DNA from: Armatimonadia bacterium
GTDB taxonomy: Bacteria > Armatimonadota > Zipacnadia > Zipacnadales > UBA11051
Length of the DNA stretch: 56,233 nt
Assembly (NCBI GenBank): GCA_039683575.1
Contig: JBDKRC010000083.1
Location: 1 to 56,233 of the forward strand
Direction of reading: 5' to 3'
A model generated the notes under the pieces. The model made no database searches and was not told the origin of the DNA. It worked only from the letters and a program-made list of their open reading frames with translations. Numbering within the stretch: position 1 is the first letter of the stretch; each line of letters starts with the position of its first letter. The position numbers and the translations under genes were made by a program. This document shows, one piece after another, positions 20,417-42,818 of the stretch.

Positions 20417-21457
20417 TCAAGCTTCATTACTGTATTCACTCCCCGCTTCCGGCCTCGCGCGCTCGCGGAAGAGCCAGTGCACCCCGGCGCTGTAGGCAAT
20501 CACCACTGGCAGGCCGAGAATGGCTGTGATCAGCATTGCGGTCAAGGCGAGATGGGAGGCTGAGGCGTTGTATGCGGTGAGGCTGAGCGTCGGATCCTGG
20601 GCTGGAAGCAGGGTTGGGTACAGGGCTACGGCCGAACTGCCGAAGAGGAGCAGGATGCTTACCGAAGAGGCGGCGAAGGCGACTGCATCGCGCTCGCCCA
20701 GGTGCGCAGCGCCGGCAACCGCTACCGCGAGGAGTGCGAGCATCGGGACTGCCCACAGGGCAGGCATACCTACGTAATTCGCGACGAGCCTCGGCGAGTT
20801 ACAGGCCAGAACGGCAAAGGCCGCTATCAACAGCGGGAAGGTGATGATCCACGTGTCGCGACCCCAGCGTCTGGCCCGGCGGCGCACCTCGCCTGTGGTC
20901 TTCAGCCTGATCCAGATCGCCCCGTGCAGAGTCACTGCCAGGAACAACAGGATGGTCACCAGCAGTGCCATTGGACTGAAGACAGCGCCAAACGCGAAAC
21001 GCAGCTCGCCGTCTGCGTCGAGCGGCAGCCCCGCTAGCACGTTACCCAGGAGCAGGCCCAGCGAGACTACTGCGGCCGTGCTGCTGACGCCGAAGATGAC
21101 ATCCCACACCTGGCGTGGGCGGGGCCGATGCTCCTTCTGAGCGTACTCCACCGACACCGTGCGTAGAATCAGCGCTAGCAGCAGGATGATCAGCAGGGGG
21201 TATAGGCCGCTTAGCAGCGCCGCGTATAGTGGCGGGAACGCGGCAAAGGTGGCCCCGCCGGCGGTGACCAGCCAGACTTGATTGCCATCCCAAAACGGGG
21301 CGATGGCAGTGAGCAGCTGGGTGCGTTCCTGACCACGGCGGGCCAAGAGATACCAGATGCCTGTGCCGAGGTCATAGCCATCGAGCACCACGAACATCGC
21401 CAGCAGGAAGAGCAGCAAAACGTACCAGACTATCTGCAGGGCGGCGAGCGTGATCAT
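20417..21457 (-). CDS. cydB: Cytochrome bd quinol oxidase subunit II
   Basis: VLDGYDLG, PFWDGNQVWLV and LTAYNAS; ATGA overlap with cydA. Confidence 0.93.
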   Translation of the reverse strand: MITLAALQIVWYVLLLFLLAMFVVLDGYDLGTGIWYLLARRGQERTQLLTAIAPFWDGNQVWLVTAGGATFAAFPPLYAALLSGLYPLLIILLLALILRTVSVEYAQKEHRPRPRQVWDVIFGVSSTAAVVSLGLLLGNVLAGLPLDADGELRFAFGAVFSPMALLVTILLFLAVTLHGAIWIRLKTTGEVRRRARRWGRDTWIITFPLLIAAFAVLACNSPRLVANYVGMPALWAVPMLALLAVAVAGAAHLGERDAVAFAASSVSILLLFGSSAVALYPTLLPAQDPTLSLTAYNASASHLALTAMLITAILGLPVVIAYSAGVHWLFRERARPEAGSEYSNEA

Positions 21458-24245: not shown

Positions 24246-25711
24246 GGCGCACCTCCCGGACCCAGCAGGGCGTCGAGAGCCTGCGCGGAGATGTTCAGGA
24301 AAGCCTGCGGAGCGAGCCCGAGACATAGGATGGCAAGGGCGAGAGCGGCCACAATTGCGAGTTCGGACGCGCGCAGATCGGGAATTGCCAACGGGTCGCG
24401 CGAGGGACCATACAGGACCCGGTCCAGCAGCCAGAGAGAGTAAACCAGAGCCAGTATCAAACCGGCAGCAGCGACTACGGCAAAGGATACGCTGAGGTGA
24501 TAGGTCCCGAGCAGCGTCAGGAACTCGCCGATGAAGTTACCCATCCCGGGCAGGCCGAGCGCCGCCATGGAGAAGAACATCATCGCCGCGCCCAGTCGCG
24601 GCACCACCCGCCACAGGCCGCCCATCGCCGCCATGTCGCGCGTGCCGAGGTGGTGCTGCAGGATGCCTGCCAGCACAAACAACGCGCCAGTGCTGACCCC
24701 GTGGCTGAGCATCTGGATAACCGCGCCCTGCAGGGCCAGCGCGTTCCAGGTGAAGACCCCGAGCAGGACAAAGCCGAGATGGCTGACGCTGGTGTACGCG
24801 ATGAGACGCTTCATGTCGGTCTGGGCGAACGCCATGTGCGCCCCGTAGAGAATGCCGATCACCGCCAGCACCAGTGCCGGCACGCTGAAAGCGCGTGCCG
24901 CCTCCGGAAAGAGCGGGACGACGAAGCGGATGAGCCCATAGCCGCCGGTCTTCAGCAACAGTCCCGCCAGCACGACGCTGCCGGCCGTTGGGGCTTGAGT
25001 ATGAGCATCGGGCAACCAGGTATGCAGCGGGACGACCGGGAGTTTGACGGCAAAGGCAACGAGGAAGCCCAGCATCATCAACATCCCGGAGAGCGGGGCC
25101 AGCGGCGTGCTGAGCAGTTGCTGATACTCGAAAGTTGCCACTCCCGTTTGTTGCAGGTGCGTGAAGAAGAGTGCGACGATCGCCACGAGCATCAGCAGGC
25201 CGCTGAGCTGCGTGAACAGGAAGAATTTGATAGCGGCGTAGTGGCGGCGCTCATGCCCCCACAGGTCGATCAGGAAGTACATCGGGATCAGCATCAGCTC
25301 CCAGAAGAAGTAGAACAGGAAGAGGTCCATCGCCAGAAAGACGCCCGTCACCCCGGCGAGGACCCACAGCAGGTTGAGGTGAAACAGGCCGACCCGCTCG
25401 TCGATCTGGCTCCACGAGATTCCGACGGAGACGATCCCGAGCAGGCCGGTCAGCAGGATCAGCAGCAGACTGAGGCCGTCGATGGTGAGGCTGAAGCTGA
25501 TGCCAAGCTGCGGGATCCACCGGGCCTGGAGGGCCTGCAGCCACGGGTCGGCAGCGGACGTGCTGGAGGGCCAGAGGGTGATCGCGAGGGACAGTTGCGC
25601 GGTCATCGCCACCAGCGCCAGCACCCGCGCCGCTAGCGCGCTGAAGCGGCTGAGCGCGAAGCTCAGGATGCCGCCGACCAGCGGGATTGCGATCAGCCAT
25701 ACGAGTGTCAT
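24242..25711 (-). CDS. nuoM: NADH-quinone oxidoreductase subunit M
   Basis: FFWELMLIP, VKLPVVPLHTWLPDAH, LLKTGGYG and KRLIAYTSVSHLG. Confidence 0.95.
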   Translation of the reverse strand: MTLVWLIAIPLVGGILSFALSRFSALAARVLALVAMTAQLSLAITLWPSSTSAADPWLQALQARWIPQLGISFSLTIDGLSLLLILLTGLLGIVSVGISWSQIDERVGLFHLNLLWVLAGVTGVFLAMDLFLFYFFWELMLIPMYFLIDLWGHERRHYAAIKFFLFTQLSGLLMLVAIVALFFTHLQQTGVATFEYQQLLSTPLAPLSGMLMMLGFLVAFAVKLPVVPLHTWLPDAHTQAPTAGSVVLAGLLLKTGGYGLIRFVVPLFPEAARAFSVPALVLAVIGILYGAHMAFAQTDMKRLIAYTSVSHLGFVLLGVFTWNALALQGAVIQMLSHGVSTGALFVLAGILQHHLGTRDMAAMGGLWRVVPRLGAAMMFFSMAALGLPGMGNFIGEFLTLLGTYHLSVSFAVVAAAGLILALVYSLWLLDRVLYGPSRDPLAIPDLRASELAIVAALALAILCLGLAPQAFLNISAQALDALLGPGGAP

Positions 25712-27582
25712 CGCAGCACCACGACCGCCAGCAGCACCAGCGTCCCGACAGCAGCCGCGAGGGCATAGGAACGCACGCGGCCCGTCTGGCTGAGGGAGAG
25801 CAGGCGGTGAAGAGCAATAGTGACCGCCGCCAAACCCGTGTAGAAGGCGTCAACGAAGTCGGCACGGTTCAGACGCGCGAGATAGACCCACGGGCGGACG
25901 AAGAGCCGGCTATAGAGCCAGTCGAAGCCCCAGCCGACGAACCAGAAGCGATGCAGAACCCGAATTGCCGGTGCGGTTCCGAGGTTCTCTGCCCAGCGCG
26001 GCTGCCTAAGATACAGCAGCGCGGCGATGGCGAGCCCCGCGAGCGTCGCTATGATCGGCAGCACCTGCAATGAGGCGGCGGCACCACCCTCGCCGGGCGC
26101 GGCGCTGGCTGTCGAGAGGAAGCTGCCGCGCAGCAGGGCGGTGAAGGCGCCGGTACCTCCGTGCGGGAGGTTGAGGTACCCGGCGACGACTGCGAGCGTG
26201 GCGAGCACCACGAGGGGCACGGCCGTCACCAGGCCCTGGCGCCGCCGTGGCTCCAGTCTGCGCTCGCCGAAGAACACCAGAAACACCATGCGGAAGGCAT
26301 AGACGGAGGTCAGCAGAGCCCCGATCAGGCCGGCCAGCCAAAAGCCCACGTTGCTCCCATACGCGGCGTTAAGAATGGCGTCCTTGCTGAAAAAGCCGGC
26401 CGTCACCCACGGAATCGCGGACAGCGACGCTGCCCCAATCAGGAAGGTCCAGAAGGCCAAGGGGAAATCGCGCCGCAAGCCGCCCATCTTGAGGATGTTG
26501 TGCTCTTCCTCAAGGCCCTGGATGACCACGCCGCCGCTGAGGAAAAGCAGCGACTTGAAGAAGGCGTGGGTGAAGAGATGGAATATTGCAGCCGACCAGG
26601 CGCCGACGCCGAGCGCGAGAAGCATGTAGCCGACCTGGCTCATGGTTGAGTAAGCCAGCACGCGCTTGAGATCCCATTGCGTCAGCGCGCTGCACGCCGC
26701 CAGCAGCAACGTCGCGGCACCCACGAGCGCCACCAGCCACTGCACGATTGGAGCCAGTTCGAAAACCACGTGCATCCGCGCGATCAGGTATACACCGGCA
26801 GTGACCATCGTTGCGGCATGAATGAGGGCGCTGACTGGCGTGGGGCCAGCCATGGCGTCCGGCAACCACGTCTGCAGCGGAAGCTGCGCCGATTTGCCGA
26901 CCGCGCCGCCAAGCAGTAAGGCTGCCGCGGCGACTGCCAGCGAACTCCCAACCGGCCATTGCAGGCTCGCCCGCTGCATCAGCTCCTGAATCTGCAGCGT
27001 GCCAAGTTGGGTGAAGATCAGCAGCAGACCGATGAGCAGCGCCGTATCGCCGACGCGCGTGATGAGGAAGGCTTTGAAGGCAGCAGTCACATTCCTGCGC
27101 TCGCGATACCAAAAGCCAATGAGTAGGTAGCTGCACAGGCCCACGCCCTCCCAGCCGAGGTAGAGCAACAACAGGTTGTCGGCGAGGACCAGCGTCAGCA
27201 TGGAGCCGACAAACAGATTCATGAAGCAGAAGAAGCGCGCGTAGCCGTCATCTTCGGCCATGAACTGGGCCGAGTAGAGCAGAATCAGGGCTCCCACGAA
27301 CGTGACGACGGCACACATGACCAGTGAGAGCGGGTCAAGGTAGAAGGCGATGGACGGCTGCAGTTCGCCAAGGCTCAGCCACCTGTATAGCACCTGCGTC
27401 TGCCCCTGTAGGGAGCCGCTCAGAAAGTGGCTACCGGCCCACGCCGTCAGCACGAACGAAGCAGCGGTGGCGCCGACGCCGATGATCGCCACGACCACAC
27501 GAGGCAGGCGCGAGCCCGCCAGCCCCAGCAGGAGGCTGGCCGCCAGAGGCAGGAGTGGGATGAGGTACAGCGGGCTCGCCAT
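25708..27582 (-). CDS. nuoL: NADH-quinone oxidoreductase subunit L
   Basis: GWEGVGLCSYLLIGFW, GKSAQLPLQTWLPDAMAGPTPVSALIHAATMV and HAFFK. Confidence 0.95.
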   Translation of the reverse strand: MASPLYLIPLLPLAASLLLGLAGSRLPRVVVAIIGVGATAASFVLTAWAGSHFLSGSLQGQTQVLYRWLSLGELQPSIAFYLDPLSLVMCAVVTFVGALILLYSAQFMAEDDGYARFFCFMNLFVGSMLTLVLADNLLLLYLGWEGVGLCSYLLIGFWYRERRNVTAAFKAFLITRVGDTALLIGLLLIFTQLGTLQIQELMQRASLQWPVGSSLAVAAAALLLGGAVGKSAQLPLQTWLPDAMAGPTPVSALIHAATMVTAGVYLIARMHVVFELAPIVQWLVALVGAATLLLAACSALTQWDLKRVLAYSTMSQVGYMLLALGVGAWSAAIFHLFTHAFFKSLLFLSGGVVIQGLEEEHNILKMGGLRRDFPLAFWTFLIGAASLSAIPWVTAGFFSKDAILNAAYGSNVGFWLAGLIGALLTSVYAFRMVFLVFFGERRLEPRRRQGLVTAVPLVVLATLAVVAGYLNLPHGGTGAFTALLRGSFLSTASAAPGEGGAAASLQVLPIIATLAGLAIAALLYLRQPRWAENLGTAPAIRVLHRFWFVGWGFDWLYSRLFVRPWVYLARLNRADFVDAFYTGLAAVTIALHRLLSLSQTGRVRSYALAAAVGTLVLLAVVVLR

Positions 27583-27583
27583 G

Positions 27584-27895
27584 CTAACCACGCATCCTGC
27601 TGATCAGGTCGGTGTCGAGGGTGCCGAAATGATGCCGCGCCGCCAGCGCCAGCGCCAGCCCTAAAGCAACCTCCGAGCCGGTGACTGCTAAGATGAACAG
27701 GAACATGATCTGCCCGTCCGCCTGCTGCCAGCGCTGCCCGGCCACCACGAAGGCCAGCCCGGCGGCGTTGAACATGATCTCCAGCGACATCAGCACGAAG
27801 ATGAGATTGCGCCGCATCAGGACGCCGATCAGCCCCAGCAGGAACAACACCGTGGCGAGCATCAGCCCAAACTGAAGGGAGGCCGTCCCTGTCAT
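27584..27895 (-). CDS. nuoK: NADH-quinone oxidoreductase subunit K
   Basis: RRNLIFVLMSLEIMFN and SEVALGLAL. Confidence 0.93.
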   Translation of the reverse strand: MTGTASLQFGLMLATVLFLLGLIGVLMRRNLIFVLMSLEIMFNAAGLAFVVAGQRWQQADGQIMFLFILAVTGSEVALGLALALAARHHFGTLDTDLISRMRG

Positions 27896-28407
27896 CTGCC
27901 GCGCTCCTCGGGAACTGCCCGGTACCGCCGTCCGATGTGATAGGCCCCGACGAGACCGCTGAGCAACACAAATGAGGCGAGTTCGACGGCAAGGCCGTAG
28001 ACGCTGAACAACCGAATGCCGACTTGGCGCGGCCCGATCATTGCCACGCCAAAGTTGGCCGTCGCCGGCACCAGAATCAGATAGGCAAGCTCCAGCAGCA
28101 GCAAGAGCGCCAGCAGGCCCGGCAGCACCCAGATCGGGCCCTGGAAGATCAGGCGCTCGTGATCCACAATCTCCGAACCGAGGTTGAACATCATCACCAC
28201 GAAGACGAACAGGACCATAATCGCCCCGGCGTAGATAATGACTTCCAGCGCCGCCACGAACGGCGCGCCGAGCAGGAAGAACACGACCGCCACCGCCAGG
28301 AGCGACACGACCAGGTAGAGCAGCGCATGAACCGCGTTGAGCCGCGTGATCACCAGGATGGTGGACACGACGGCAATGGCGGCGGACAGGTGTAGCAGGA
28401 TGGTCAT
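27892..28407 (-). CDS. nuoJ: NADH-quinone oxidoreductase subunit J
   Basis: NAVHALLYL and LEVIIYAGAIMVLFVFVVMM. Confidence 0.93.
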   Translation of the reverse strand: MTILLHLSAAIAVVSTILVITRLNAVHALLYLVVSLLAVAVVFFLLGAPFVAALEVIIYAGAIMVLFVFVVMMFNLGSEIVDHERLIFQGPIWVLPGLLALLLLLELAYLILVPATANFGVAMIGPRQVGIRLFSVYGLAVELASFVLLSGLVGAYHIGRRYRAVPEERGR

Positions 28408-28429
28408 GATCGTCTACGGCAGCGGACTG

Positions 28430-28945
28430 CTACGGCAGAAGGCTCCGGACGTCCACCGGCGGCCGCTCCTCCACCCCCTCGCCCTTTGCCTTGCCGTCGA
28501 TCGCGACACCCGAGATCTTGTAGAAGTCGTACTCGTGGTACTTTCCCGGGCCGCTGATCAGCAGGTCCTCCTTCTCGTACACGAGGCTGTCGCGCTGGTA
28601 CTCCGCCATCTCATAGTCAGGCGTAAGTTGGATCGCATATGTGGGGCAGGCATCCTCGCAGAAGCCGCAAAATATGCAGCGCGAGAAGTTGATCCGGAAG
28701 AACTCAGGATAGCGGCGGCCATCCGGCTTCTCCGCCGCCTGCAGGGCGATGCAATCCACCGGGCAGGCCACGGCGCAGAGGTAGCAGGCGACGCAGCGCT
28801 CGTCACCGGAGGGATCGCGCGTAAGGACGATCCGCCCACGCCAGCGCGCCGCCAGGTAGCGTCTCTGCTCCGGGTACTGGATGGTCTCGCGCCGCAAGAA
28901 CGCGTGCTTGAACACCTCCCAGATAGTCAGCAGGAGGCTAAGCAT
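28430..28945 (-). CDS. nuoI: NADH-quinone oxidoreductase subunit I
   Basis: Two ferredoxin motifs, [12 protein letters not shown] and [12 protein letters not shown]. Confidence 0.95.
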
Positions 28946-29915
28946 TGAAGTAGCCATCCCATAGCAGCACCGCCAGGCCGGTAAGCAGCAGGTTGACCAG
29001 TGACAGCGGCAGCAGGAGCTTCCAGCCGAAGGCCATCAACTGATCGAAGCGCGGGCGTGGAAAGGCGGCGCGCCCGAACAGGAAGATCGCGACGAAGATC
29101 ACCATCTTACCGAGGAACCACAGCACCGGCGGGATGTGCGGGATCAGAAGAGACTGCCAGCCGCCCAGGAAGAGAATCACGATTAGCGCCGAGATCAGCG
29201 TGATGCCGAAGTACTCGCCGAGAAAGAACAGGGCGAACTTGATCCCTGAGTATTCAGTGTGGTAGCCGGCGACGATCTCATTCTCCGCTTCTGGCAGATC
29301 GAAAGGCAGGCGCCGCGTCTCTGCGAAACCCGCGATCAGGAAGACCGCAAAGCCGATGAACTGCGGGATGATGAACCACAGACGCCGCTGGGCCTGGATG
29401 ATATCCGTGAGGTTGAACGACTGCGCCATCAGCACGACGCCCATCAGCGACAGGCCCATGAAGACCTCATAGCTGATCATCTGGCCAGCGCCGCGCAGAG
29501 CGCCCTGGAGGGGATATTTGCTGTTGGAGGCCCAGCCGCCGAGAACGATACTGTAGACCGTGAGTGATGACATTCCGAGGAAGAAGAGCAGGCCGATGTT
29601 GAGATTCGCGACTTCGATGCCGGGCGCGAAGCTGATGATGGCGAAGGACATCAGGGTGAAGATGATGATGAGCGCGGGCGCGATCACGAACAACGCGCGA
29701 TCGGCGAAAGGCGGGGTCCAGTCCTCCTTGAAGAGCAACTTGATCATATCCGCCACGACCTGAAACATCCCCAAGGGTCCGACGCGGTTGGGGCCATAGC
29801 GATCCTGGAACAGCGACAGGAACCGGCGCTCAATCCAGGTAAGCCCGGGGGCGAAGACCATCACGAAGATGATGACGCCGAGGATGATGAGCAGGTACTT
29901 GAGGATCTCGTTCAC
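28938..29915 (-). CDS. nuoH: NADH-quinone oxidoreductase subunit H
   Basis: [20 protein letters not shown] and [27 protein letters not shown] overlap with the stop of the fusion gene. Confidence 0.95.
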
Positions 29916-32900
29916 AGCGTCTCACCTGCCTGATTGGGCGGCGGGCCAAAACCTGTGACCGTCGCCCAATCCGGTAGACTCATCCCCGGCAGCCCCGGCA
30001 GGCCTGCCGTCAATGCCGCGACCCCCTCCGGCAGATCCTCGCAAGCCTCCACCAACACCCGCAGCCGCAGATGCTCCGTCAGGACCTCCACCGTCTGCCC
30101 CGGCTCCAGCTTGAGCCGCTCCAAGTCCCGCGGATGGAGGGCCACGTAGGGTTTCGGAGCCAGTTCGCTGATGCCGGGGCTATGGACGCTCAACTCTTCG
30201 GAGCCGAAGACATGGTGCACGGGGACCACCAGCAGAGCATCCTCGCGGCGCGAGAAGGCCGCAACAGAAACGGTGTTGTAGGCGGGCGCATTGTCGGAAG
30301 GAGCTATGAGCCGCTTGCCCGCAGGCCCGCCCCGCAGAGGCCCCGCGACGGTCTCCTGATAGCGCGTAATCGCCTGCGGCGAGTTCCACCCCGGCGCGCG
30401 GTACCGGGCGATGAGCGAGGGTGGGGGAGAGACGTGATGACCCTCCATGGAGAAGTTGAACGGTGCGTCCGGATCGTCGGGGGGCGGTGGCTCGTGCACC
30501 GTCTCATTCGCGTGCATGGCAGTGCGCCCGCTGTAGCGCTCGGGCTGCCGCGGCAGCTTCTGCCCCACCATCCGGAAGTCCGACAGCGGTGCCGCTTGCG
30601 CGGTGCCCGCCAGCTCTGACAGTTTGTCGGCCTCCAAAATCAGGTCATCGAGGCTGTCCCAGGACGTCCGGCCATTCCGCGCCTCAATCATCTCGGCGAT
30701 CCAGCGCCAACTCTCCCGCACGCTGCCCTCCGGCACAAAGACCTCAAAATGCCGCTGTGCGCGCCCCTCGTTGTTGATCAGGGTGCCAGTGCTCTCGGCG
30801 AACGTCGCCGCCGGAAGGATGACGTCGGCATAGGGTGTCGTGGCATTCTCAAGATGATCGATCACCACGAGATGCTCCGCCGCGCGCAGGAGGCGATCCG
30901 CCGTCTCCTCCGCCAGTTCGCGGTGAAGGTCGTTTTCCAGCACAATCGTCGCCAGCGTCGCGTCATGCTCCAGGCGCGCCAACGCCGCCTCGAGACTTCC
31001 TCCCCCGAGCATTGCCGCGCCCATGCTGTTGCAGTGTGGGGCCGTGAAGAAGAGCCGCACGTTCTGACCCGTCCTCTGCAGTGCCCAGGCCACGTTCGCC
31101 GCGGCCTGTACTGCCTGCGGCGCACCGGTGCAGTGCCCGGCAATGATGACCGGGAGGTCAGCCATCTTGAGCTGTTCGGCGATCTCCCGGGCCAGTGAGG
31201 CGATTTCGGGCGGCACCCCCTCGGGCTTTGGGCTCGCGGGGTCCAGAGCCTGGGCCACTGCGAATCCCAACAACGCGATGTCATCGGGTGCCGCGCGATA
31301 CGTCTGCGTGGCCGCATCATCCAGACGCGTGCTGACGGAACTGGCGATGTAGAGCGGTCCCTTCGTCCGCTGCACCGCCTCACGCAGCGCGGTGTCTTCA
31401 TACGAGTGGAGGTGCAGCGTCTTCGCGTCCTTCAGGGGTGCTTGTAGCACGGTCTGGCGTAGCGACAGGGCCAGCATGGGAGCATCGTTGGGGATGTCCT
31501 CACCCAGAACCAGAGCCGCGTCGCACTTGCCCACCTCCGCGAGCGAGGCCGACGCGACGGGCCCCTCCCGGAGGACTCGCAGTATCTCCCGCTGTATCGC
31601 GAGGTTACGCTCGGACAGGCCACTATGGAAGTTGGCTTCGCCAACGAGCGTCCGTAGCGCCAAATTCGCCTCCACAGAAGCCCGCGGTGAGCCGATGCCG
31701 ATCAGACCGTGGTTGCGCACTATGTCGGATAGGGTCTCAGACAGCGTCGCCGGGCTCGCCTCGTCGAAAGTATCGCTGGCGGACCGCCGCAGGCGCGGCT
31801 CGCGCAGGCGCTTGTCGCTATTGACGAATTCGTACCCGTAGCGTCCGCGGTCACATAGGAAATAGCCGTTCACGTCGTAGTTGTAGCGCGCTCGGATGCG
31901 CCTGAGCATCCCGTACCGCTCGCCGGGGATCGTGTTGCAGCCAAGCCCGCAGTGCACGCACACCGACGGCGCGGTCTGCAGGTCCCACTTGCGCGTGAAG
32001 TGCTGCTTGAAGGTCTTATCGGTGAAGACGCCGGTGGGGCAGACTTCAACCAGGTTGCCCGCGAATTCGCTCTCCAGCACGCCGTCCTCGAACCGCCCGA
32101 AGTAGACGTGATCATGCCAGCCGAAGACGTTGAAATCGCGGCCCCCGGCATAGTCGCAATAGAACCGCACGCACCGGTAGCACTGGATGCACCGGTTCAT
32201 CTCGTGGTTCACGAAGGGGCCGAGATACTGGTTCCTGTGGGTGCGCTTGTCGAAGCGGTACCGGCGGTAGACATGGCCATTCATGATAGTCATGTCCTGC
32301 AGGTGGCATTCCCCGCCCTCATCGCAGACCGGGCAGTCGTGCGGGTGGTTGACCATCAACCATTCGGCGACGCTGCGGCGGAAAGCCGCGGCCTCCTCGT
32401 CACTGATTGAGATTCGCATGCCATCGTGGACGTCCGTCATGCATGACATGACGATCCGGCCCTTTTTGTCGTTCTCGTTCTTGAAGACTTTGACCGCGCA
32501 CTGCCGACAGGCGCCGACTGAGTGCATGGCGGGATGCCAGCAGAAATATGGCAGGTCAAAGCCCAGTGCCAGACAGGCCTCCAGGAGATTGCCGTTCTCG
32601 TAGCCGGCGATCGAATATGGTTGGTTGTCCACATAGATCGTGGGAGTGTCAGGCGATCCGGCCTTTAAGGCCGGGGTAATGGGCGCGCGGGCTTGTGGCG
32701 TTCCGCTCTCGGCAGTCGCCCGAACGTCTCCGCCCATTGGCGGGGTGAGTGACGTATCTATGTCACCAGCCTCATTTTGTGGCGCCAATTGAGACGGGGG
32801 CGTCGGGGGTGGTGTATCTGCCGACGATGTCTCCTCCGCTCTGCGCCACGCACGCCAATAGACGTATGCCGCCGCCAGAAACAACGGCAGCGCCCCCGCG

Positions 32901-35134
32901 CCGATGAAGATTAGATCCGCCGGCAGCCGCGCCCAAGCCAGAGCTTGCATGAACCAGTGGTCCAGGAAAGCCGGGCTTCTGGCGTGCCAGTAACCGTTGG
33001 TAATGACGTCATAGAACTGCAGTACGCCGCCGGGAAACAGGTTCAGCCCCACCATCCCCAGCAGGCCCAGATTCAGTCCCCAAAAGGAGACCCGGATGAG
33101 TCGCTCAGCGACATGCCAGTCCGCGTCGGTCGCCGTCTGTCGCAAAGCGAGTACCACAAAAGCCACTCCGAGCATGCCAAAGACACCCATGAGGGCGCCG
33201 TGGGCGTGATTGGCAGTCAGGTTCGTCCCGGCCTCATAGTAGCTGACCACCGGCAGGTTAATAAGGAAGCCGAAAACCCCGGCCCCAAGGAAATTCCACA
33301 CGCCAACCGCGATAAGAAAGTAGAAGGCCCACTTGTGAGGAAAAGAGACTATCTGGCCGCTGGCGTCTTTGCCGGAGCGCATAAGTGCGACGAAGCCGGA
33401 AGCCTCCAAAGTCAGCAGCACCAGCGGCACCACCTCCATGGCTGAAAAGGTGGCCGAAAGTGCCATTGAGACGGCTGACTGTCCCGTCCAGTACCAGTGG
33501 TGGCCGGTTCCGAGGGTACCGCTACCGAGGAACAGGATCGCATCGAGGTAAATGATACGCTTGGCCGTGAGCTGCGACACCAGCCCTAACTTGAGGAAGA
33601 TCATTGCAACCATTACGGTGGCAAAGAGTTCAAAGAAGCCCTCGACCCACAGATGGATGATGAAGAAACGCCAGGTATCGACGATGGTGAAGTGACTGGT
33701 ACTCTTGAAGAAGAAGGCCGGCAGGTAGAAAATGGGTATGCAGAAGGCGGTCAGGAGAAACAGGTTCGTGACTTCACGCCGCTGCCGATCCTGACGCGCC
33801 GGTGCTACCGCTCTGACAAGCAGCAAAGTCCATAGGACCAGTCCCAGCGCCAGCATGACCTGCCAGGCTCGGCCGATCTCGAGGTATTCCCAGCCCTGGT
33901 TGCCGATCCAGAACCACAAGTTGCCCAGAAGCTGCTTAACCCCCGCCCACTCGCCGAGCAGGCTGCCGCCCACTGTGCCCAGCAGGACCAGGAACAACAA
34001 GTTGATCCCCGCGGCCTGCCAGCGTGGTTGGCTGTTCCCCAGCGCGGAAGCAATCGTCAGACCGCCGCCCACAAAGGCGGTCGCAATCCACAGGATAGCC
34101 AGTTGCAGATGCCAACTGCGCAAGACAGTGCTCGGCAGCAGATTGGTCAGATCGAAGCCATAGAAGCTCCGCGGATCAACGGTGTAATGTGCCAATAGCC
34201 CGCCCACCAGCGTCTGCGCCAGCAGCATGGCCGTTGCGAGTACGAAGAACTTCAGTGTGGCTCGCTCTGCGGGGCCAGCATCTTCGCGCATCAGGTGTGA
34301 CGCCGTCTCCAGGTCCTGGGCGCGATGCCAACCCAGAACACGGAATCTGCCGAACGCCAGAAGCACCAAGGCAATGCCGACCAGGAGGGATATCAGACTC
34401 AGGCCACTCCACAAGATGGCCGGTCCGGACGGACCGTTGCCAACTGCCGGATCGTAGGGGAAGTTGTTGGTGTAGGAGTACGCTTTTCCGGGGGCCAGCG
34501 CCGTCGCCGCCCAGGCAGTCCAGGCGAAGAATGCTGTCAGTTGGCGCAATTCGTCCGGGTCAGAGATCATCTTCACCGGAAGGCCACGGTTCGCCGGCGT
34601 GCTGGAGAAGAAAGCCCGCCAATGGCCAATCTGGCGCTGGAACGAAGACACCTCGGGTGGCGTCAGCGTCAGCACCCCGGTGTGCGGATCATACCGGTTC
34701 TGACTGAGCAGGGCGTGGACCTGACTTTGCAGGCTGAGACGGTCAAGGCTCTCCAATCCCCCGCCAGGGCGGACGGGACTGCGGTCTGACAAGTATTCCC
34801 CGACCCCCAGAGCGAGCAGGTGCAGATACTCTGCCGTGAAATCAGGCCCAAGATAAGCGCCGTGGCCCCAGACCGTGCCGTTGTTCATGAGGCCATACTT
34901 GAGAAACACCTGCTGACCCGCGATCACGTCGGCGCCGGTGAAGACGATCTTGCCTGAGCTGTCGACACTCTTCCCGGGGATGGGTGGGGCTCCTTCTGGG
35001 CGGTAGGCGCTGATGGCAATGCCCAGAAGAACCACAAGCTCCGCCGCGATAACGACGATTACGGCTCGTCGCCACCACGGAGACAATTCGTTTTGTGAAA
35101 CTGGCACGTTCTCAGGCATTTTGGGTCCAGTCAA
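29912..35134 (-). CDS. norZ-nuoG: Fusion protein: quinol-dependent nitric oxide reductase (qNor/NorZ, aa ~1-765), linker, and full-length NuoG (aa ~831-1740); start 35134 TTG or 35119 ATG
   Basis: qNor motifs: GTVWGHGAYLGPD, YSYTNNFP, RSWHLQ, NQGWEYLEIGR, IHLWVEGFFE, GTGHHWYW, MEVVPL, FGFLINLP and NHAHGA. NuoG motifs: FCWHP..GACRQC..SC (N1b), HPHDCPVCDEGGEC (N5), CIQCYRC..CPTG (N4) and CVHCGLGC..LCDRGR (N7). The frame is single and uninterrupted. Confidence 0.9.
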   Translation of the reverse strand: MTGPKMPENVPVSQNELSPWWRRAVIVVIAAELVVLLGIAISAYRPEGAPPIPGKSVDSSGKIVFTGADVIAGQQVFLKYGLMNNGTVWGHGAYLGPDFTAEYLHLLALGVGEYLSDRSPVRPGGGLESLDRLSLQSQVHALLSQNRYDPHTGVLTLTPPEVSSFQRQIGHWRAFFSSTPANRGLPVKMISDPDELRQLTAFFAWTAWAATALAPGKAYSYTNNFPYDPAVGNGPSGPAILWSGLSLISLLVGIALVLLAFGRFRVLGWHRAQDLETASHLMREDAGPAERATLKFFVLATAMLLAQTLVGGLLAHYTVDPRSFYGFDLTNLLPSTVLRSWHLQLAILWIATAFVGGGLTIASALGNSQPRWQAAGINLLFLVLLGTVGGSLLGEWAGVKQLLGNLWFWIGNQGWEYLEIGRAWQVMLALGLVLWTLLLVRAVAPARQDRQRREVTNLFLLTAFCIPIFYLPAFFFKSTSHFTIVDTWRFFIIHLWVEGFFELFATVMVAMIFLKLGLVSQLTAKRIIYLDAILFLGSGTLGTGHHWYWTGQSAVSMALSATFSAMEVVPLVLLTLEASGFVALMRSGKDASGQIVSFPHKWAFYFLIAVGVWNFLGAGVFGFLINLPVVSYYEAGTNLTANHAHGALMGVFGMLGVAFVVLALRQTATDADWHVAERLIRVSFWGLNLGLLGMVGLNLFPGGVLQFYDVITNGYWHARSPAFLDHWFMQALAWARLPADLIFIGAGALPLFLAAAYVYWRAWRRAEETSSADTPPPTPPSQLAPQNEAGDIDTSLTPPMGGDVRATAESGTPQARAPITPALKAGSPDTPTIYVDNQPYSIAGYENGNLLEACLALGFDLPYFCWHPAMHSVGACRQCAVKVFKNENDKKGRIVMSCMTDVHDGMRISISDEEAAAFRRSVAEWLMVNHPHDCPVCDEGGECHLQDMTIMNGHVYRRYRFDKRTHRNQYLGPFVNHEMNRCIQCYRCVRFYCDYAGGRDFNVFGWHDHVYFGRFEDGVLESEFAGNLVEVCPTGVFTDKTFKQHFTRKWDLQTAPSVCVHCGLGCNTIPGERYGMLRRIRARYNYDVNGYFLCDRGRYGYEFVNSDKRLREPRLRRSASDTFDEASPATLSETLSDIVRNHGLIGIGSPRASVEANLALRTLVGEANFHSGLSERNLAIQREILRVLREGPVASASLAEVGKCDAALVLGEDIPNDAPMLALSLRQTVLQAPLKDAKTLHLHSYEDTALREAVQRTKGPLYIASSVSTRLDDAATQTYRAAPDDIALLGFAVAQALDPASPKPEGVPPEIASLAREIAEQLKMADLPVIIAGHCTGAPQAVQAAANVAWALQRTGQNVRLFFTAPHCNSMGAAMLGGGSLEAALARLEHDATLATIVLENDLHRELAEETADRLLRAAEHLVVIDHLENATTPYADVILPAATFAESTGTLINNEGRAQRHFEVFVPEGSVRESWRWIAEMIEARNGRTSWDSLDDLILEADKLSELAGTAQAAPLSDFRMVGQKLPRQPERYSGRTAMHANETVHEPPPPDDPDAPFNFSMEGHHVSPPPSLIARYRAPGWNSPQAITRYQETVAGPLRGGPAGKRLIAPSDNAPAYNTVSVAAFSRREDALLVVPVHHVFGSEELSVHSPGISELAPKPYVALHPRDLERLKLEPGQTVEVLTEHLRLRVLVEACEDLPEGVAALTAGLPGLPGMSLPDWATVTGFGPPPNQAGETL

Positions 35135-35137
35135 CGT

Positions 35138-36412
35138 CTACGTGCGGTACGGGCAGCGGTGATCGCTGATGTGGCGGTCAAAATCGTCACGGAAGTGCAA
35201 CAGCGCGCTCTCGATGGGCGCCATCGCGCCGGGCGCGAGCGCGCAGAAGGTGAGATTCATCCGCACCTGCTTCACATGGTGCTCCAGAATCTCCATATCA
35301 GACGGCTGGCCCTTGCCAGCTTCGATTGCGGCCAGAGTGCGCATTACCCACGGCAGCCCCTCCCGGCAGGGGGTGCACCAGCCGCACGACTCGCGCGCGA
35401 AAAACGCCGTCATTCCATACAGCAGGTCCACCGGGCACGTCCGGTCATCGAGCACCGTGATCGTGCCGGTCCCGAGGCGGCTGTGGATGGCGTCCATGCT
35501 GTCAAAGTCCATCGGCGTGCCCAGGTCCTTCTCGGTCACGAAGGAGGTGGAAGCGCCGCCTGGGAGCAGCGCGCGGAATTTGTAGCCCTCCGCCATGCCG
35601 CCCGCATAGTGCTCCAGAATCTGCTCGATAGGCATCCCCATGGGCAGTTCCCATAGTCCTGGCTTTTGCACATGTCCGCTGGCCCCGTAGAGTTTGGTCC
35701 CGGCGTCGTCTGTTAACGCGAGGCCTTTGAACCACTGCGGGCCGCGCTGGACGATATGCGGGACGCAGCAGACGGTCTCGACGTTGTTGACGACGGTGGG
35801 CTTGCCCAAAAGACCGATCGTCTGTGGGTAGGGAGGCTTGGCGCGGGGGATGGCTCGTTTGCCCTCAAGCGCGTCGATCAGGCCTTCTTCCTCGCCGCAC
35901 ATATAGCGCCCGGCGCTGGCGTGAATGTGCAGCTTCAGCTTGTACGGGCTGCCCATAGCGCTATCGCCGAGTATCCCCGCCTGCTCCGCCTCCTGTAGCG
36001 CCGCCGCGAGGCGCTGGTACGCCAGCCGGTACTCCCAGCGCAGGAAGATGAAGGCGATGTCCGCCTGAATTGCATATGAGGAGATGATTGCGCCCTCGAT
36101 GACTTGATGCGGGTCCCCCTCCAGCAGCCAGCGGTCCTTCATCGTCCCCGGTTCCATCTCGTCGGCGTTGACGCAGAAGTACTTCGGGTGCCGCGCTTGG
36201 TCGCTCATGTCGGTGAAGGACCACTTCTGGCCCGTCGGAAAGCCCGCCCCGCCCCTGCCGCGTAGTCCCGAATCCGAAACCGCCTTCTGGACTTCCTGTG
36301 GGCTCAGGCTAAGCGCCTGGCGCAGCGCCTCATAGCCGCCAGCCTGGCGGTACTCGTCAAGGCTCAGCGGCTCGCGGTTCGGCTTGATGCGGCCAGTCAG
36401 CGGCGTCTCCAC
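35138..36412 (-). CDS. nuoF: NADH-quinone oxidoreductase subunit F
   Basis: GLRGRGGAGFPTG, NADEMEPG, YMCGEE and ESCGWCTPCREG..C. Confidence 0.95.
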   Translation of the reverse strand: METPLTGRIKPNREPLSLDEYRQAGGYEALRQALSLSPQEVQKAVSDSGLRGRGGAGFPTGQKWSFTDMSDQARHPKYFCVNADEMEPGTMKDRWLLEGDPHQVIEGAIISSYAIQADIAFIFLRWEYRLAYQRLAAALQEAEQAGILGDSAMGSPYKLKLHIHASAGRYMCGEEEGLIDALEGKRAIPRAKPPYPQTIGLLGKPTVVNNVETVCCVPHIVQRGPQWFKGLALTDDAGTKLYGASGHVQKPGLWELPMGMPIEQILEHYAGGMAEGYKFRALLPGGASTSFVTEKDLGTPMDFDSMDAIHSRLGTGTITVLDDRTCPVDLLYGMTAFFARESCGWCTPCREGLPWVMRTLAAIEAGKGQPSDMEILEHHVKQVRMNLTFCALAPGAMAPIESALLHFRDDFDRHISDHRCPYRT

Positions 36413-36424
36413 TATTTCACCTGG

Positions 36425-36889
36425 CTACGGGTATTGCTCGAGTATCTGCGCAATCTTCTCCGCGGTGAGCTGAACGTGCAGATCGTCATCCACCATCATC
36501 ACCGGGGCCAGATCGCACGCCCCCAGGCACCCATTTGGCAAGAGCGTGAAGCGATCGTCGGCGGTGGTTTGACCCATCCCGATGCCCAGTTGCTGCTCCA
36601 GCGACTCCCGCACCGGGTTGTAGCCCATGATCCAGCAACTGACGCTGTCGCAGATCAGGATGACGTGCCGGCCCACGGGCTCTCGGTAGATGAGGTTGTA
36701 GAAGGTTGCGACCGTGTCGATTTCGGCGGGGTCGAGCCCCAGGACCCGCGCGAGATCACGCACGTGCTCATCCGACACCCAGCGGTGCTGCTGCTGGACG
36801 ATCCGCAACGCGCCCACAATGGCCCCCCGTGGGTCCTCGTACTTGTCGCGCTCCGCCTGGAGGTCGCGAATCTCGCTATCGCTAAGCAT
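36425..36889 (-). CDS. nuoE: NADH-quinone oxidoreductase subunit E
   Basis: VATFY, CDSVSC and CLGACDLAP (2Fe-2S cluster N1a). Confidence 0.95.
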   Translation of the reverse strand: MLSDSEIRDLQAERDKYEDPRGAIVGALRIVQQQHRWVSDEHVRDLARVLGLDPAEIDTVATFYNLIYREPVGRHVILICDSVSCWIMGYNPVRESLEQQLGIGMGQTTADDRFTLLPNGCLGACDLAPVMMVDDDLHVQLTAEKIAQILEQYP

Positions 36890-36892
36890 GGC

Positions 36893-38644
36893 TCACCGAT
36901 CAACGTCTGCAAGGACGAAATCAAGGCTGCCGAGGATGGACGCGAGGTCTGGGATCATCAGCCCGCGTCCCAGCATCGGCACCATCTGGATGTGCGGAAA
37001 TGATGGCGTGCGGATGCGCGTGCGGTAGGACATGACATCCCCATCACTCACGAGGTAGTACGTATTGTTACCCTTGGCCCCCTCAACCCCGACGGCGGCC
37101 TCTCCCGCGGGCACGACCGGCCCCCAGGAGACGTGAACGAAGTGGTCGATGAGGGTCTCGATATCCTGCATCGTGTTGTGCTCTTTGAGCGGCGGGGTGG
37201 CAGCCGGATGCAGCGACTTGTAGGTTCCGGACGGCATATGGTCGAGGCATTGTTCGATGATCCGCAGGCTCTGGCGCATCTCTTCCATGTGAACGACAGC
37301 GCGGTCATAGGCGTCGCCGCGCTCGCCGGTGGGGATATCGAATTCGAACTGCTCATAGCCGCCATAGGGGCGATTCTTGCGCCAGTCCCACTGCTTGCCG
37401 CAAGCCCGCAGCACGGGCCCGGTGGCGCCCCACTCAATCGCCTGCTCGGTTGTCAGCGCCCCAATCCCCACCGTGCGCGCGCGGAAGAGCCTGTTGAGCA
37501 TCACCATCCGTCGGTACTCAGTCAGGCGCTTGTCCATGCGCTTGAGATAAGTGCGAACCAGCGGGTCGTAGCCTTCCGGCAAGTCCTGCGCCACGCCGCC
37601 GATGCGGAACCATCCTGGGTGCATTCGCGCGCCGGTGATCGCCTCCACGATGTCAAAGGCATGCTCACGGTCATTGAACATGTAGAAGACTGGGGAGAGC
37701 ATGCCCAGGTCCTGCGCGAAGGTCCCCATGAAGACGAGGTGGCTGATGATCCGGAACAACTCCGCCAGCATGATGCGGATTACCCGCGCGCGGTCCGGCA
37801 CCTGAATCCCCGCCAGCGCCTCGACGGCCATGACGTAGGGGAAGTTGTTGATCACCCCCGCCAGGTAGTCAACGCGGTCGGTGTAAGGAATGTATGTGTG
37901 CCAGCTCTGCCGCTCACCCATCTTTTCGGCGCCGCGGTGGTGGAAGCCGATATCGGGGAAGATGTCGACGATCTCCTGCCCCCGGAGCTTGAGCACCAGC
38001 CTCAGTACGCCGTGGGTGGACGGGTGATGTGGGCCCATGTTGAGGTACAGGTAGTCAAAATCCGCCTCACGCTTCTCGCCACCAAGGAGCCGCGGGTCGA
38101 ACTCCATCATCTGCTCGAATTCCGAGGCCTTGGTCTCTGGCTGATGATAGATGCCCATATCGGTCGCTCGCGCCGGGTGCTCTTTGCGCAGCGGGTGGCC
38201 TTCCCACCATGGCGGCATCAGAATGCGCCGCAAGTCGGGGTGGCCCGTGAAGCCGATCCCGAACATGTCGAAGACTTCCCGCTCATACCAGTTGGCACAG
38301 GGCCACAGGCTCGTGATCGAGGGCGCCGAGGGCGCTTCACCCGTAAGCGCCACCTTCAGACGCAGGTCCTGATTGCGGTCATACGAAAGCAGGTGGTAGA
38401 CGAGTGTGAAGTCAGCGGGCGGCTGGTCGGGGCGGTGGAGGCGCTGCCGCTCGTCAATGGCAGTGAGGTCGTAAAGCGTACGGTAGGGGCTGGGAAGGGT
38501 TTCCTTCAGGTGGCGGAGCAGTGACTCGACAATCCGCGGCTGAACCCAGACGGTGGGGATGCCATCGGCGGTCAGTTGCGGGCGCACGTCGACCGGACCG
38601 AACGCGGCCTGAAGCTCCTTTACCACCTCCAGCTCCTCAACCAT
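36893..38644 (-). CDS. nuoCD: NADH-quinone oxidoreductase fused subunit C/D
   Basis: [11 protein letters not shown] and GHPLRK (C part); [28 protein letters not shown] and ADVDR (D part). Confidence 0.95.
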
Positions 38645-38671: not shown

Positions 38672-39292
38672 TCAGATTTGGTCCGGTGGCTTCAGAAGTG
38701 TCTGTGCGGTACGCTCCGCGCGCCGTTCGTCTCGCTGTGAGGGCAACTTTGGCCGCACTACCCCTTGCGGGCCAACTACCCAACTCAGCGGGCGCTGCTC
38801 GTCACCCACAAGCTCGCGCAGCATCAGCAGCCCGTGCATGAATGCCTCGGGGCTGGGCGGGCAGCCCTGGATATACACATCAACCGGGAGGAAGGTGTCC
38901 ACTCCCTGCACGACGCTGTAAATGTCGTACATCCCGCCGGAGTTCGCGCACGATCCCATCGAAATGACCCAGCGCGGGGCCATCATCTGCTCGTAGAGCT
39001 GCTGGATGACCGGCGCCATCTTAACGAAGACGGTGCCGGAGATCACAATGAGATCGGCTTCCCGAGGCGTCGAGCGGATGACCTCCGCGCCGAAGCGGGC
39101 GATATCGTAGCGGCTGGTGAGGCTGGTCGCCATCTCGACATAGCAGCACGACAGGCCGAAGTTGAAGGGCCACAGCGAGTTCTTGCGGCCCCACGATACG
39201 AGCCGCTGGAGCGTCGTGAAGATGACGTTCTCGCCGATCAGCCGCGAGAGCGGGCCATTGGTCAGTTTACCGCCGGGTTCTGCTTCAGACAT
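38672..39292 (-). CDS. nuoB: NADH-quinone oxidoreductase subunit B
   Basis: [20 protein letters not shown] and GCPP. Confidence 0.95.
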
Positions 39293-39707
39293 GGTGCTGA
39301 TCACCGTCCGGCGCGGCCCGACCCAGATGCTGCGCCGACGTGCCCCACTCCAGTGCGCCGATGCCCCACAGATAGCCCAAAGCCGCCAGCAGCACGCCGA
39401 TGAAGATCGAAATCTGCCCGTACGCCGCCCAACCCGTCTCGCGAGCCGATACGGCCCAGGTGTAGATGAACACGGCCTCCAGATCGAAGACTACGAAGAA
39501 CATCGCCATCAGGTAGTACTCGGCGGGCACCCGCGCCCGGGCACTGCCGGTGGGGATCATTCCGCCTTCGTACGGCGTCCCCGTGGCGCGCTGCTTGTGG
39601 CGCTGTCCGAGCAGCCATGGCACAAAGATCATCGCGGCTGCCAGCAACACCACTAATACGGTATATAGCACCAGCGGCCAGATCAGGGGCGCCTGCGCGT
39701 CCGTCAT
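39285..39707 (-). CDS. nuoA: NADH-quinone oxidoreductase subunit A
   Basis: [19 protein letters not shown] and GALEW; ATGA overlap with the zwf stop. Confidence 0.93.
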
Positions 39708-41263
39708 GCCTTTTCACCCCCGGGACGTGCCTCAGGCGGCTCGCACACATCCGGATCGTTGAGCGGAGTGGGCATCTGCCATGCCCGCCCGTCCCGCGCT
39801 ATTAACGCCTCGCCGGTCTCTGGCCCCCACGTGCCGGCGGCATAGTTCGGGAAGTCCTCGGCTACCTCGGACCAGCCCTCGATGATGGGCATGACGATGG
39901 CCCACGAGGCCTCGACCTGGTCCCGGCGCTTGAAGAGCGTGGCATCCCCAATCATCGCGTCCGCCAGCAGCGTCTCGTACGCCTGCGCGGGCTCACGGTG
40001 GAAGGCCTGCTTGTAACTGAACTGCATATCCACGGGGCTGAGCTTCATCCCCTGTCCCGGACGCTTGGCATAGAACCGCAGCCGGATGCCTTCCTCCGGA
40101 TCAATGTAGAGCACCAGCCGGTTCATCTGATAGCTGCCGATTGCGGAGGGGGGGAACGCCTGGTGCGGCGCGGGGCGGAAGTTGATGCTGACCTCCGACA
40201 CTGTCTGCGCCATCCGTTTGCCCGTGCGCAGGTAGAACGGCACGTCCTGCCAGCGCCAGTTATCGATGAAGAGCTTGACGGCCGCGTAGGTCTCGGTGTC
40301 AGACTGCGGATCGACACCTGGCTCCTGGCGATACCCCGGCACCTTCTCGCCCTCGATCCAACCCGGGCCGTACTGCCCGCGGGCGGTGAAGTCATGCACT
40401 TGCGCCACCTCGATCGGCCGCACAGCCCGCAGAACTTCCACTTTCTTGTCGCGGATGGTATCGGCCTCAAAAGCGACCGGGGCGTCCATGGCGGTCAGGC
40501 ACATCACCTGCATCAGATGGTTCTCGATCATGTCCCGCAAGGCGCCGGTTTTCTCGTAGTACGGCCCCCGGTGCTCCACGCCCAGCTTCTCAGGCATGTT
40601 GATCTGCACGTGGTCCACGTAGCGACGGTCCCAGATGGGCTCGAAGATGCCATTGGCAAAGCGCAGGGCGAGGATGTTTTGGACGGTCTCCTTGCCCAGG
40701 AAGTGGTCGATGCGGAAGATCTGGGATTCATCGAACGCTGTTGCCAGCTTGCGATTGAGCTCGGCCGCGGAATTGGCATCCCAACCAAAGGGCTTCTCCA
40801 GTACTATCCTGCTCTTCTGGCGGTCCTGCGCCAGCCCGGCGGCCTTTAGCTGTTCAATCAGGCCCTCGACCACCGAGGGCGGCGTCGCCTGGTAGAACAG
40901 TCGGACCGCGTTGCCCTGCCACTGCTGGTTCAGTTCGTCCAGCTTCTGACTTATCTTCTCGTACAGCTTCCTGTCAGTCAGGTCCGCGACGACATAGTCG
41001 TTGATGCACTTGAGAAATGCCTGCCACTGCTTCGTCTCGGTCTTGCCAAACCTCGAAAACTCGTCAGTGCCGTCGCGCAACTGTCTGATGAAGTCTTTCG
41101 GTGACATTTCCCGAGCGTCGGTGCCAATCAGCGCGAACTTGTCAGGTAGTCCGCCGTCAAGGTACAGGTCATACAGGGCGGGCACTAACTTGCGCTTAGT
41201 GAGGTCGCCACCGGCGCCGAATATCACCAGTACAACGGGGTCAGGGTACTGCAGCTTCTCCAA
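39704..41263 (-). CDS. zwf: Glucose-6-phosphate 1-dehydrogenase
   Basis: IFGAGGDL, EKPFG, RIDHFLGKE, GALRDMIENH and WQDVPFYLRTGKR. TTG start follows GAGGGAGG. Confidence 0.95.
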   Translation of the reverse strand: MEKLQYPDPVVLVIFGAGGDLTKRKLVPALYDLYLDGGLPDKFALIGTDAREMSPKDFIRQLRDGTDEFSRFGKTETKQWQAFLKCINDYVVADLTDRKLYEKISQKLDELNQQWQGNAVRLFYQATPPSVVEGLIEQLKAAGLAQDRQKSRIVLEKPFGWDANSAAELNRKLATAFDESQIFRIDHFLGKETVQNILALRFANGIFEPIWDRRYVDHVQINMPEKLGVEHRGPYYEKTGALRDMIENHLMQVMCLTAMDAPVAFEADTIRDKKVEVLRAVRPIEVAQVHDFTARGQYGPGWIEGEKVPGYRQEPGVDPQSDTETYAAVKLFIDNWRWQDVPFYLRTGKRMAQTVSEVSINFRPAPHQAFPPSAIGSYQMNRLVLYIDPEEGIRLRFYAKRPGQGMKLSPVDMQFSYKQAFHREPAQAYETLLADAMIGDATLFKRRDQVEASWAIVMPIIEGWSEVAEDFPNYAAGTWGPETGEALIARDGRAWQMPTPLNDPDVCEPPEARPGGEKA

Positions 41264-41291
41264 AACGCCGCCCTCCCTCACTTGCCTCGCG

Positions 41292-42791: not shown

Positions 42792-42818
42792 ACACTCCCC
42801 AGCGGTCCGGCTGCGGCG

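Follow-up and report, generated by a model that had tools for sequence, protein, structure and literature searches.

A nitric oxide reductase of the quinol-dependent type and NuoG in one open reading frame

We analysed contig JBDKRC010000083.1 of an uncultured Armatimonadia bacterium from wastewater, a stretch of 56,233 nucleotides (nt) referred to here as the window, which is one entire 56-kb contig of a 6.2-Mb, 352-contig, 96%-complete metagenome bin. In its operon for respiratory complex I (nuo), the place of nuoG is taken by a single open reading frame (ORF) of 1740 amino acids (aa) at 29912..35134 on the minus strand, with TTG as the first possible start. Its N-terminal part is a nitric oxide reductase that depends on quinol (qNor, NorZ), its C-terminal part is NuoG, and the calculated mass of the fused chain is 190.5 kDa. 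Pfam searches found NorB_cytochrome_c-like at residues 53-227 (PF22085, 176 bits) and COX1 at 292-738 (PF00115, 166 bits) on the qNor side, followed on the NuoG side by Fer2_4 at 832-909, NADH-G_4Fe-4S_3 at 919-954, Fer4_Nqo3 at 972-1038, Molybdop_Fe4S4 at 1053-1106, Molybdopterin, and Molydop_binding at 1648-1713. A preliminary description of this DNA had read the frame as a complete qNor (residues ~1-765) and a complete NuoG (~831-1740) at the nuoG position between nuoF and nuoH; the Pfam matches and the alignments with a Geobacillus qNOR (3AYF) and with E. coli NuoG agree with it, and the flanking genes were identified as nuoF and nuoH. The qNor-NuoG fusion is genuine; the function of its tether is unproven.

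The qNor half aligns end to end with 3AYF (residues 36-758 against 38-765, 564 bits). His342, His643 and His645 at the haem b/b3 positions and His494, Glu498, His545 and His546 at the FeB site are identical between the two proteins, and of the quinol-site residues His316 and Asp740 are kept while Asp321 stands in place of the Geobacillus Glu. We take the aligned residues to have the roles in haem b, haem b3, FeB and quinol binding that are described in the literature, the quinol-site residues of the Geobacillus enzyme being His328, Glu332 and Asp746. Residues 1-290 are free of Cys, from which it follows that the N-terminal domain binds no haem c. The last hydrophobic segment of the fused chain is at 741-759; it is followed by WRAWRR, and no later hydrophobic peak was seen. 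qNor is a 14-helix, quinol-oxidising enzyme of the haem-copper superfamily with a cytoplasmic C-terminus, and because the homology to the 14-helix 3AYF runs over the full length, the C-terminus of the qNor half should also be cytoplasmic, on the side of the membrane where NuoG has to lie, so that the topology is feasible, as had been proposed. With qNOR/NorZ proteins (3AYF and the Alcaligenes and Neisseria qNORs) it shares the N-terminal domain and NorB/COX1 core in one chain, the metal ligands and the haem-less N-terminus. By these features it is an ordinary member of the qNOR family, for which quinol-dependent reduction of NO to N2O is predicted. Identity as a nitric oxide dismutase was considered and rejected, since the catalytic and quinol-site residues are those of a canonical qNOR.

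What sets the fused chain apart from stand-alone qNORs is its C-terminus. The 79 stand-alone homologues end 6-30 residues (median 12) past the last helix, whereas the fused chain runs 975 residues more, and the closest stand-alone qNor proteins in the databases are 758-775 aa long among the matches listed. C-terminal additions do exist on other qNors, with 21 long proteins of 964-1169 aa, which indicates that the qNor C-terminus tolerates extensions. Among these long proteins (P0003-P0023), a YwiC-like domain (PF14256) is present in one and PF20046 in one, and a haloarchaeal set (Natronococcus, Natrinema, Haladaptatus) has ~250-350 extra residues with no Pfam match.

The NuoG half scored 581.1 bits with the NuoG equivalog model TIGR01973 (cut-off 470.05) and 939 bits against residues 3-892 of E. 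coli NuoG. The Cys/His motifs for all four iron-sulfur (Fe-S) clusters, N1b, N5, N4 and N7, are identical to those of E. coli, as the preliminary description had held. For the E. coli protein, the N7 cysteines are given as 228, 231, 235 and 263, and an E. coli-specific G-loop is named as well (PMC8357420); the G-loop region of E. coli NuoG aligns with the NuoG half. No second NuoG above the TIGR01973 cut-off was found in the whole 6.2-Mb genome, which extends genome-wide the earlier claim of a single nuoG in the window, and the fused gene is also the only COX1-family match in the genome. Compared with E. coli-type NuoG (PDB 7P63, 7NYR), the NuoG half has the same N1b, N4, N5 and N7 motifs, and its gene lies between nuoF and nuoH in an operon in which nuoCD is fused; it differs in lacking its own start at the canonical site and in carrying an 830-residue membrane-protein extension on its N-terminus.

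At the canonical start position of NuoG, where relatives read M/V-(A/P)-T-I-Y, the sequence here is Thr-Pro-Thr-Ile-Tyr with ACT as the codon for Thr830, and no stop is found upstream for 830 codons. In this it departs from the NuoG family, whose members are free-standing polypeptides that each have a start codon; otherwise the NuoG half is an ordinary member of that family. The earlier statement that NuoG lacks a start codon holds for the canonical site but not for its surroundings, since in-frame TTG (Leu783), ATG (Met800) and GTG (Val835) codons lie close to the NuoG beginning. Inspection for Shine-Dalgarno sequences gave no recognisable motif at these internal candidates, and the same was true of five of the nine operon gene starts examined; because most genes of the operon have no clear motif, its absence at the internal starts says nothing. 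In two relatives (L013 / G026:C126 and L010 / G021:C89) nuoG lies within a long open frame (1242 and 1011 aa) that reaches far upstream; the upstream stretch in L010 has no recognisable domain and resembles an out-of-frame 3' end of nuoF.

The linker between the halves is 65 residues long and rich in Pro, Ala and Thr (12, 10 and 9 residues). Its GC content at third codon positions (GC3) is 0.585, against 0.737 in the qNor part and 0.75-0.875 in the nuo genes, and because the linker does not have the codon bias of the genome, the fusion is probably young. When 80 qNor loci were searched by tblastn, the linker had no match. A promoter and terminator scan gave no promoter-like or terminator-like site in the linker; the five sites found, against 2.9 ± 1.8 expected, were all elsewhere. 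A hairpin at 32658-32674 in the linker has a 6-bp GC-rich stem and a 5-nt loop with no T-run after it, and it is not conserved in the second strain described below.

A second strain, an RNA library and database searches

Contigs from a DNA sequencing run of wastewater (X1) were built by a different pipeline from a different run than the window and are ~1% divergent from it. They tile 29500-35600 at an even depth of ~6x with no indels. One of them (record 4, 703 nt, 32554-33256) crosses the whole linker, with 91 nt on the NuoG side and 417 nt on the qNor side, and another (record 6) crosses the nuoF/qNor junction. Coverage at these two places, on which the preliminary description had made its claim depend, is thus present, with no indel at either and no stop in the linker. 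For records 2 and 4 (30895-33256) every difference from the window is listed, and the frame stays open with all nine differences of record 4 and all 14 of record 2. The reading frame in X1 is verified fully for the linker and most of NuoG and partly for qNor. Two apparent joints and the loose ends among the X1 contigs had sides of 24-26 nt or lay in conserved cores, away from the junctions, and were read as coming from other organisms.

In the enzyme domains, 26 of the 32 listed strain differences are synonymous (9/10 in qNor and 17/22 in NuoG), where ~25% would be expected at random (binomial p = 5.8e-10, tested against 0.28), which shows that both halves have been under purifying selection since the strains split. 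The linker behaves differently: four of the nine differences on record 4 fall in it, and three of these four are non-synonymous. Two of the four lie inside the hairpin, one weakening the stem and one in the loop. Taken together, the X1 results show that the qNor-NuoG fusion is older than the split of the two strains.

At six places, on both halves, contigs of an RNA library from the same study (X2) match the window with 100% identity; one of these contigs (34978-35259) bridges nuoF and qNor. The X2 contigs on the fused gene hint at expression. Two runs from other studies (X5 and X7) gave short, low-depth pieces, none of which bridges a junction, one X7 piece (record 27) having 20 nt on the qNor side; they speak neither for nor against the fusion.

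We found no second protein with both domains. Of 22 long proteins (957-3045 aa) that match the qNor part, only the window's own has NuoG domains; 542 long proteins match the NuoG part, and among the 120 listed COX1 occurs only in the window's own. When the junction (residues 600-880) was used as the query, 6135 short proteins matched; among the 120 listed, every one is qNor-only, with 52-67% of the query covered. A HMMER search with residues 560-1000 against 1.84 billion cluster representatives gave 8166 matches, the best 150 of which match the qNor end or the NuoG start and never both; the window's own protein is not among the matches listed, so that a cluster representative could conceal relatives with the fusion. 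Six oddly placed HMMER matches were rejected as qNor-NuoG fusions: four read through from NuoF into NuoG, another is a NuoG preceded by unrelated sequence, and the last is a piece of qNor with a frameshift. In the four read-throughs (P0263, P0289, P0360 and P0394) the NuoF C-terminus runs straight into the NuoG N-terminus, as real fusions or frameshifted gene calls, and P0050 is a NuoG that carries a NuoF 4Fe-4S domain. At title and abstract level, the literature gave no description of a qNor-NuoG fusion, nor did the searches made turn up another respiratory enzyme fused to a subunit of complex I. The novelty suspected in the preliminary description is borne out to this extent, and the qNor-NuoG fusion appears unique as far as the searches reach.

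Proposed origin and alternative explanations

Comparison with the same order suggests how the arrangement may have come about. qNor was found in none of 40 genomes of same-order relatives at E<=1e-10, while 6 of the 40 have an E. coli-type nuo operon with subunits 45-74% identical to those in the window and with nuoG directly after nuoF; the nuoF-nuoG alignment gaps in these six are 8, 8, 9, 11, 51 and 186 nt, with no qNor between. Among species-representative genomes, the most similar qNors share 53-63% identity with the qNor part and are spread across many phyla. Only short, chance-like matches were found in a search for direct or inverted repeats flanking the insertion. The account we lean towards, with somewhat more confidence than doubt, is that of a genuine, evolutionarily recent in-frame gene fusion in which a laterally acquired norZ lost its stop codon. 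A foreign norZ with some of its 3' flank would have landed in the very short nuoF-nuoG spacer, and loss of the norZ stop would have carried translation through ~60 formerly non-coding codons into nuoG, the start codon of which, then useless, would have drifted away. The predicted product would have the 14-helix membrane body of qNor, a flexible cytoplasmic tether of ~65-70 residues and NuoG in its normal seat in the NADH-oxidising module, near NuoF and NuoE, which the tether would let it reach.

Other explanations were weighed against this one. It is highly improbable that the fusion is a sequencing or assembly artefact, with separate norZ and nuoG genes and a stop hidden by a missed base or a chimeric join. 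The genome is a metagenome bin in 352 contigs, the fused protein is a database singleton and the confirming run is only ~6x deep, but the second assembly, which is ~1% divergent and comes from a different run and pipeline, has the same arrangement with no indel across the linker or either junction and at even depth. Both other linker frames contain stops, as does any alternative reading into nuoG; the canonical NuoG start codon is absent, and for a chimera one whole gene would have to be placed in a spacer of 8-11 nt by two precise joins. Nor is it likely that the fusion is a damaging accident in which tethering keeps NuoG out of the peripheral arm, this copy of complex I is decaying and other NADH-oxidising modules are used. 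We regard this as very unlikely: the second NuoD-type gene, the four further NuoF/NuoG-like modules of the genome (see below) and the recent date of the fusion would suit it, whereas purifying selection between the strains (17/22 synonymous differences in NuoG and 9/10 in qNor), the Fe-S and haem/FeB ligands, all intact, the intact ORFs of 13/13 nuo genes and the RNA-library contigs on the gene speak against it.

An explanation that we consider unlikely, to a lesser degree, is that the cell contains two proteins, with NuoG made from an internal start (Met800, Leu783 or Val835) or released by proteolysis of the disordered linker, and that the fusion is a neutral by-product of the insertion. In-frame ATG, TTG and GTG codons do lie just upstream of or just inside the NuoG beginning, the fusion is limited to one lineage, the linker looks unconstrained, with three of its four strain differences non-synonymous and a GC3 of 0.585, it is rich in Pro, Thr and Ala and has no homologue, and it had a ~7% chance of being open and in frame. 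However, there is no stop, so that ribosomes starting at qNor must still make the fused chain, and a start at Val835 would take four residues off the beginning of the conserved first strand; the internal candidates also have no recognisable ribosome-binding motif, a weak point that is true of five of the nine operon starts examined. Several of these observations, and some others, count against the reading of a young fusion that acts as one chain. Internal initiation at Leu783, Met800 or Val835 could give free NuoG, and the linker looks, by its composition, like recently recruited non-coding DNA. Among shuffled linkers (n=200,000), 20% had no stop, and the correct frame brings a further factor of 1/3; because an open, in-frame linker of 195 nt arises by chance in ~7% of cases, the open frame alone is weak evidence of selection for the tether. 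Fifteen X1 differences lie outside the listing (13 in 33239-35600 and two in 29500-30914), so that an open X1 frame is only presumed for most of the qNor half, and X1 may share a study with the source sample, in which case it is a second assembly and a second strain from one habitat. The depth of X2 is zero in the bins 32356-33579, leaving the linker uncovered, and an RNA library can contain DNA. The fusion is known here from nucleic-acid sequence alone, only one species-level lineage carries it, and long-term selection for the tether is unproven. Finally, by the geometry of complex I, in which the NuoG N-terminus is high on the peripheral arm, roughly 80-100 Å above the membrane, the tether would have to be fairly extended to reach the NuoG seat; a Pro-rich chain of 70 residues, with a contour of ~250 Å, could span ~80-100 Å if moderately extended.

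We infer an intact polypeptide and its assembly into complex I from the gene. If the fused chain works in this way, electrons would pass from NADH through the flavin mononucleotide/Fe-S chain to quinone in complex I, and from quinol through the qNor haems to 2 NO, giving N2O. qNor is reduced by quinol close to the membrane's outer face. Direct electron transfer from the NuoG clusters to the qNor haems was considered and rejected, the quinol site near the outer face being far from the cytoplasmic Fe-S chain. The main effect of the fusion would be co-expression, 1:1 stoichiometry and proximity, with no wiring through the tether. That the chain stays intact and is kept by selection, so that every complex I bears a leashed qNor and is an obligate proton-pumping NADH:NO oxidoreductase, is possible but doubtful. 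A role of the tether in NO respiration or in protection of the Fe-S clusters is unproven. Activity of qNORs as dimers has been reported; as a speculation, a dimerising qNor moiety would pair two complex I molecules.

Neighbouring nuo genes fuse in frame readily, as in NuoCD here and NuoBCD in two deltaproteobacterial contigs (see below). NuoCD and NuoBCD join touching subunits of one complex, while in qNor-NuoG the partner of complex I is a respiratory enzyme of another kind. The closest system in function that we could document is the nar-nrc cluster of Thermus thermophilus NAR1, a mobile cluster rich in insertion sequences (IS) with an NADH dehydrogenase beside a nitrogen-oxide reductase (PMC7694296). 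There, association of Nrc and Nar in a "nitrate respirasome" for efficient electron transfer was proposed from two-hybrid assays and is biochemically unproven according to the authors (PMC7694296). Both systems have a mobile cluster that pairs an NADH dehydrogenase with a nitrogen-oxide reductase, but in Thermus the two enzymes are separate proteins, with a dehydrogenase other than complex I and with nitrate in place of NO as the acceptor.

NO can also be removed at the expense of NADH by flavorubredoxin NorVW, flavohaemoglobin Hmp and fungal P450nor, which are soluble and NADH-dependent, bypass the quinone pool and conserve no energy. The overall reaction is the same as that proposed here, where complex I, by contrast, would pump protons. 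It has long been argued whether supercomplexes speed electron transfer, control stoichiometry or only stabilise proteins, and a natural complex I-qNor chain, if true, would be a direct handle on this question. It would be the first covalent link of complex I to a terminal reductase and a natural test of the proximity of quinone reductase and quinol oxidase. It would also be a minimal energy-conserving NO-respiring chain in an organism with no nirK, nirS or nrfA found, which bears on NO consumers and N2O emitters in wastewater communities. If it is a tolerated accident, it would be a datable snapshot of an operon insertion becoming a multi-domain protein, in which the lost stop codon, the spacer recruited as linker and the erased downstream start codon are still readable. 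Two known enzymes make up the fusion, which is probably young; an adaptive value of the tether is unproven.

The operon and its genomic surroundings

The nuo operon, with the fused gene, comprises 13 genes, all of them intact ORFs. The features of the locus are collected in Table 1.

Table 1. Genes and protein parts of the qNor-NuoG locus (positions in the window)
Feature	Position	Strand	Remarks
Fused qNor-linker-NuoG ORF	29912..35134	-	From ORF scan, Pfam, TIGR01973 and calculated mass
qNor (NorZ) part, residues 1-765	32840..35134	-	N-terminal helix, haem-less cytochrome-c-like domain, NorB/COX1 core
Linker, residues 766-830	32645..32839	-	
NuoG part, residues 831-1740 and stop codon	29912..32644	-	E. 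coli-type
nuoF	35138..36412	-	Stop 3 nt ahead of the TTG at which the fused ORF may begin
nuoE	36425..36889	-	
nuoCD	36893..38644	-	Fused C/D subunit, hallmark of E. coli-type operons
nuoB	38672..39304	-	
nuoA	39285..39707	-	
nuoH	28938..29915	-	First 4 nt shared with the end of the fused ORF, stop codon included
nuoI, nuoJ, nuoK, nuoL, nuoM, nuoN	22797..28957	-	
cydA and cydB	20417..22779	-	Cytochrome bd quinol oxidase; directly downstream of nuoN
zwf, gnd and HAD hydrolase	39704..43427	-	zwf, glucose-6-phosphate dehydrogenase; gnd, 6-phosphogluconate dehydrogenase; directly upstream of nuoA
IS21-type pair	43638..45412	+	Mu-transposase C-terminal domain protein and IstB ATPase; upstream edge of the cluster

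The best matches of zwf in near relatives are 38-41% identical, and cydA had no match in two of three same-genus genomes. In the stretch 20417-43427, HAD hydrolase, gnd, zwf, nuoA-N with the fused gene and cydAB follow one another head to tail on the minus strand, and with the IS21 edge they probably make up a compact, horizontally gained respiratory island in which quinol would be oxidised by two routes, with O2 through cytochrome bd and with NO through qNor. Elsewhere the genome contains a second NuoD-type gene (contig C223) and another four NuoF/NuoG-like modules, which suggests a largely fermentative organism; the island would let such an organism burn NAD(P)H with O2 through cytochrome bd or with the NO of its neighbours through qNor. 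The four modules, on contigs C12, C49, C22 and C302, have NuoF-like genes and NuoG-like N-terminal domains in frames of 538-687 aa, and may be bifurcating hydrogenase or formate dehydrogenase modules.

We found no nirK, nirS or nrfA in the 96%-complete genome, and therefore any NO would have to come from neighbouring organisms. A search of the genome for the nosZ propeller gave no match, and the control genomes likewise gave none.

Unfused neighbours of qNor and complex I occur on two contigs of Desulfobaccales-like, deltaproteobacterial metagenome-assembled genomes (L043 1-9737 and L080 1-10802), which share their layout and may be close kin. Both have a unit of UbiA prenyltransferase, qNor and cytochrome-b5/DUF2231 and, ~2.7 kb from it, a divergent E. 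coli-type nuo operon with NuoBCD. In the window, ~1 kb beyond cydB, an 821-aa protein with DUF6785 and DUF6784 is encoded at 16983-19448 on the minus strand.

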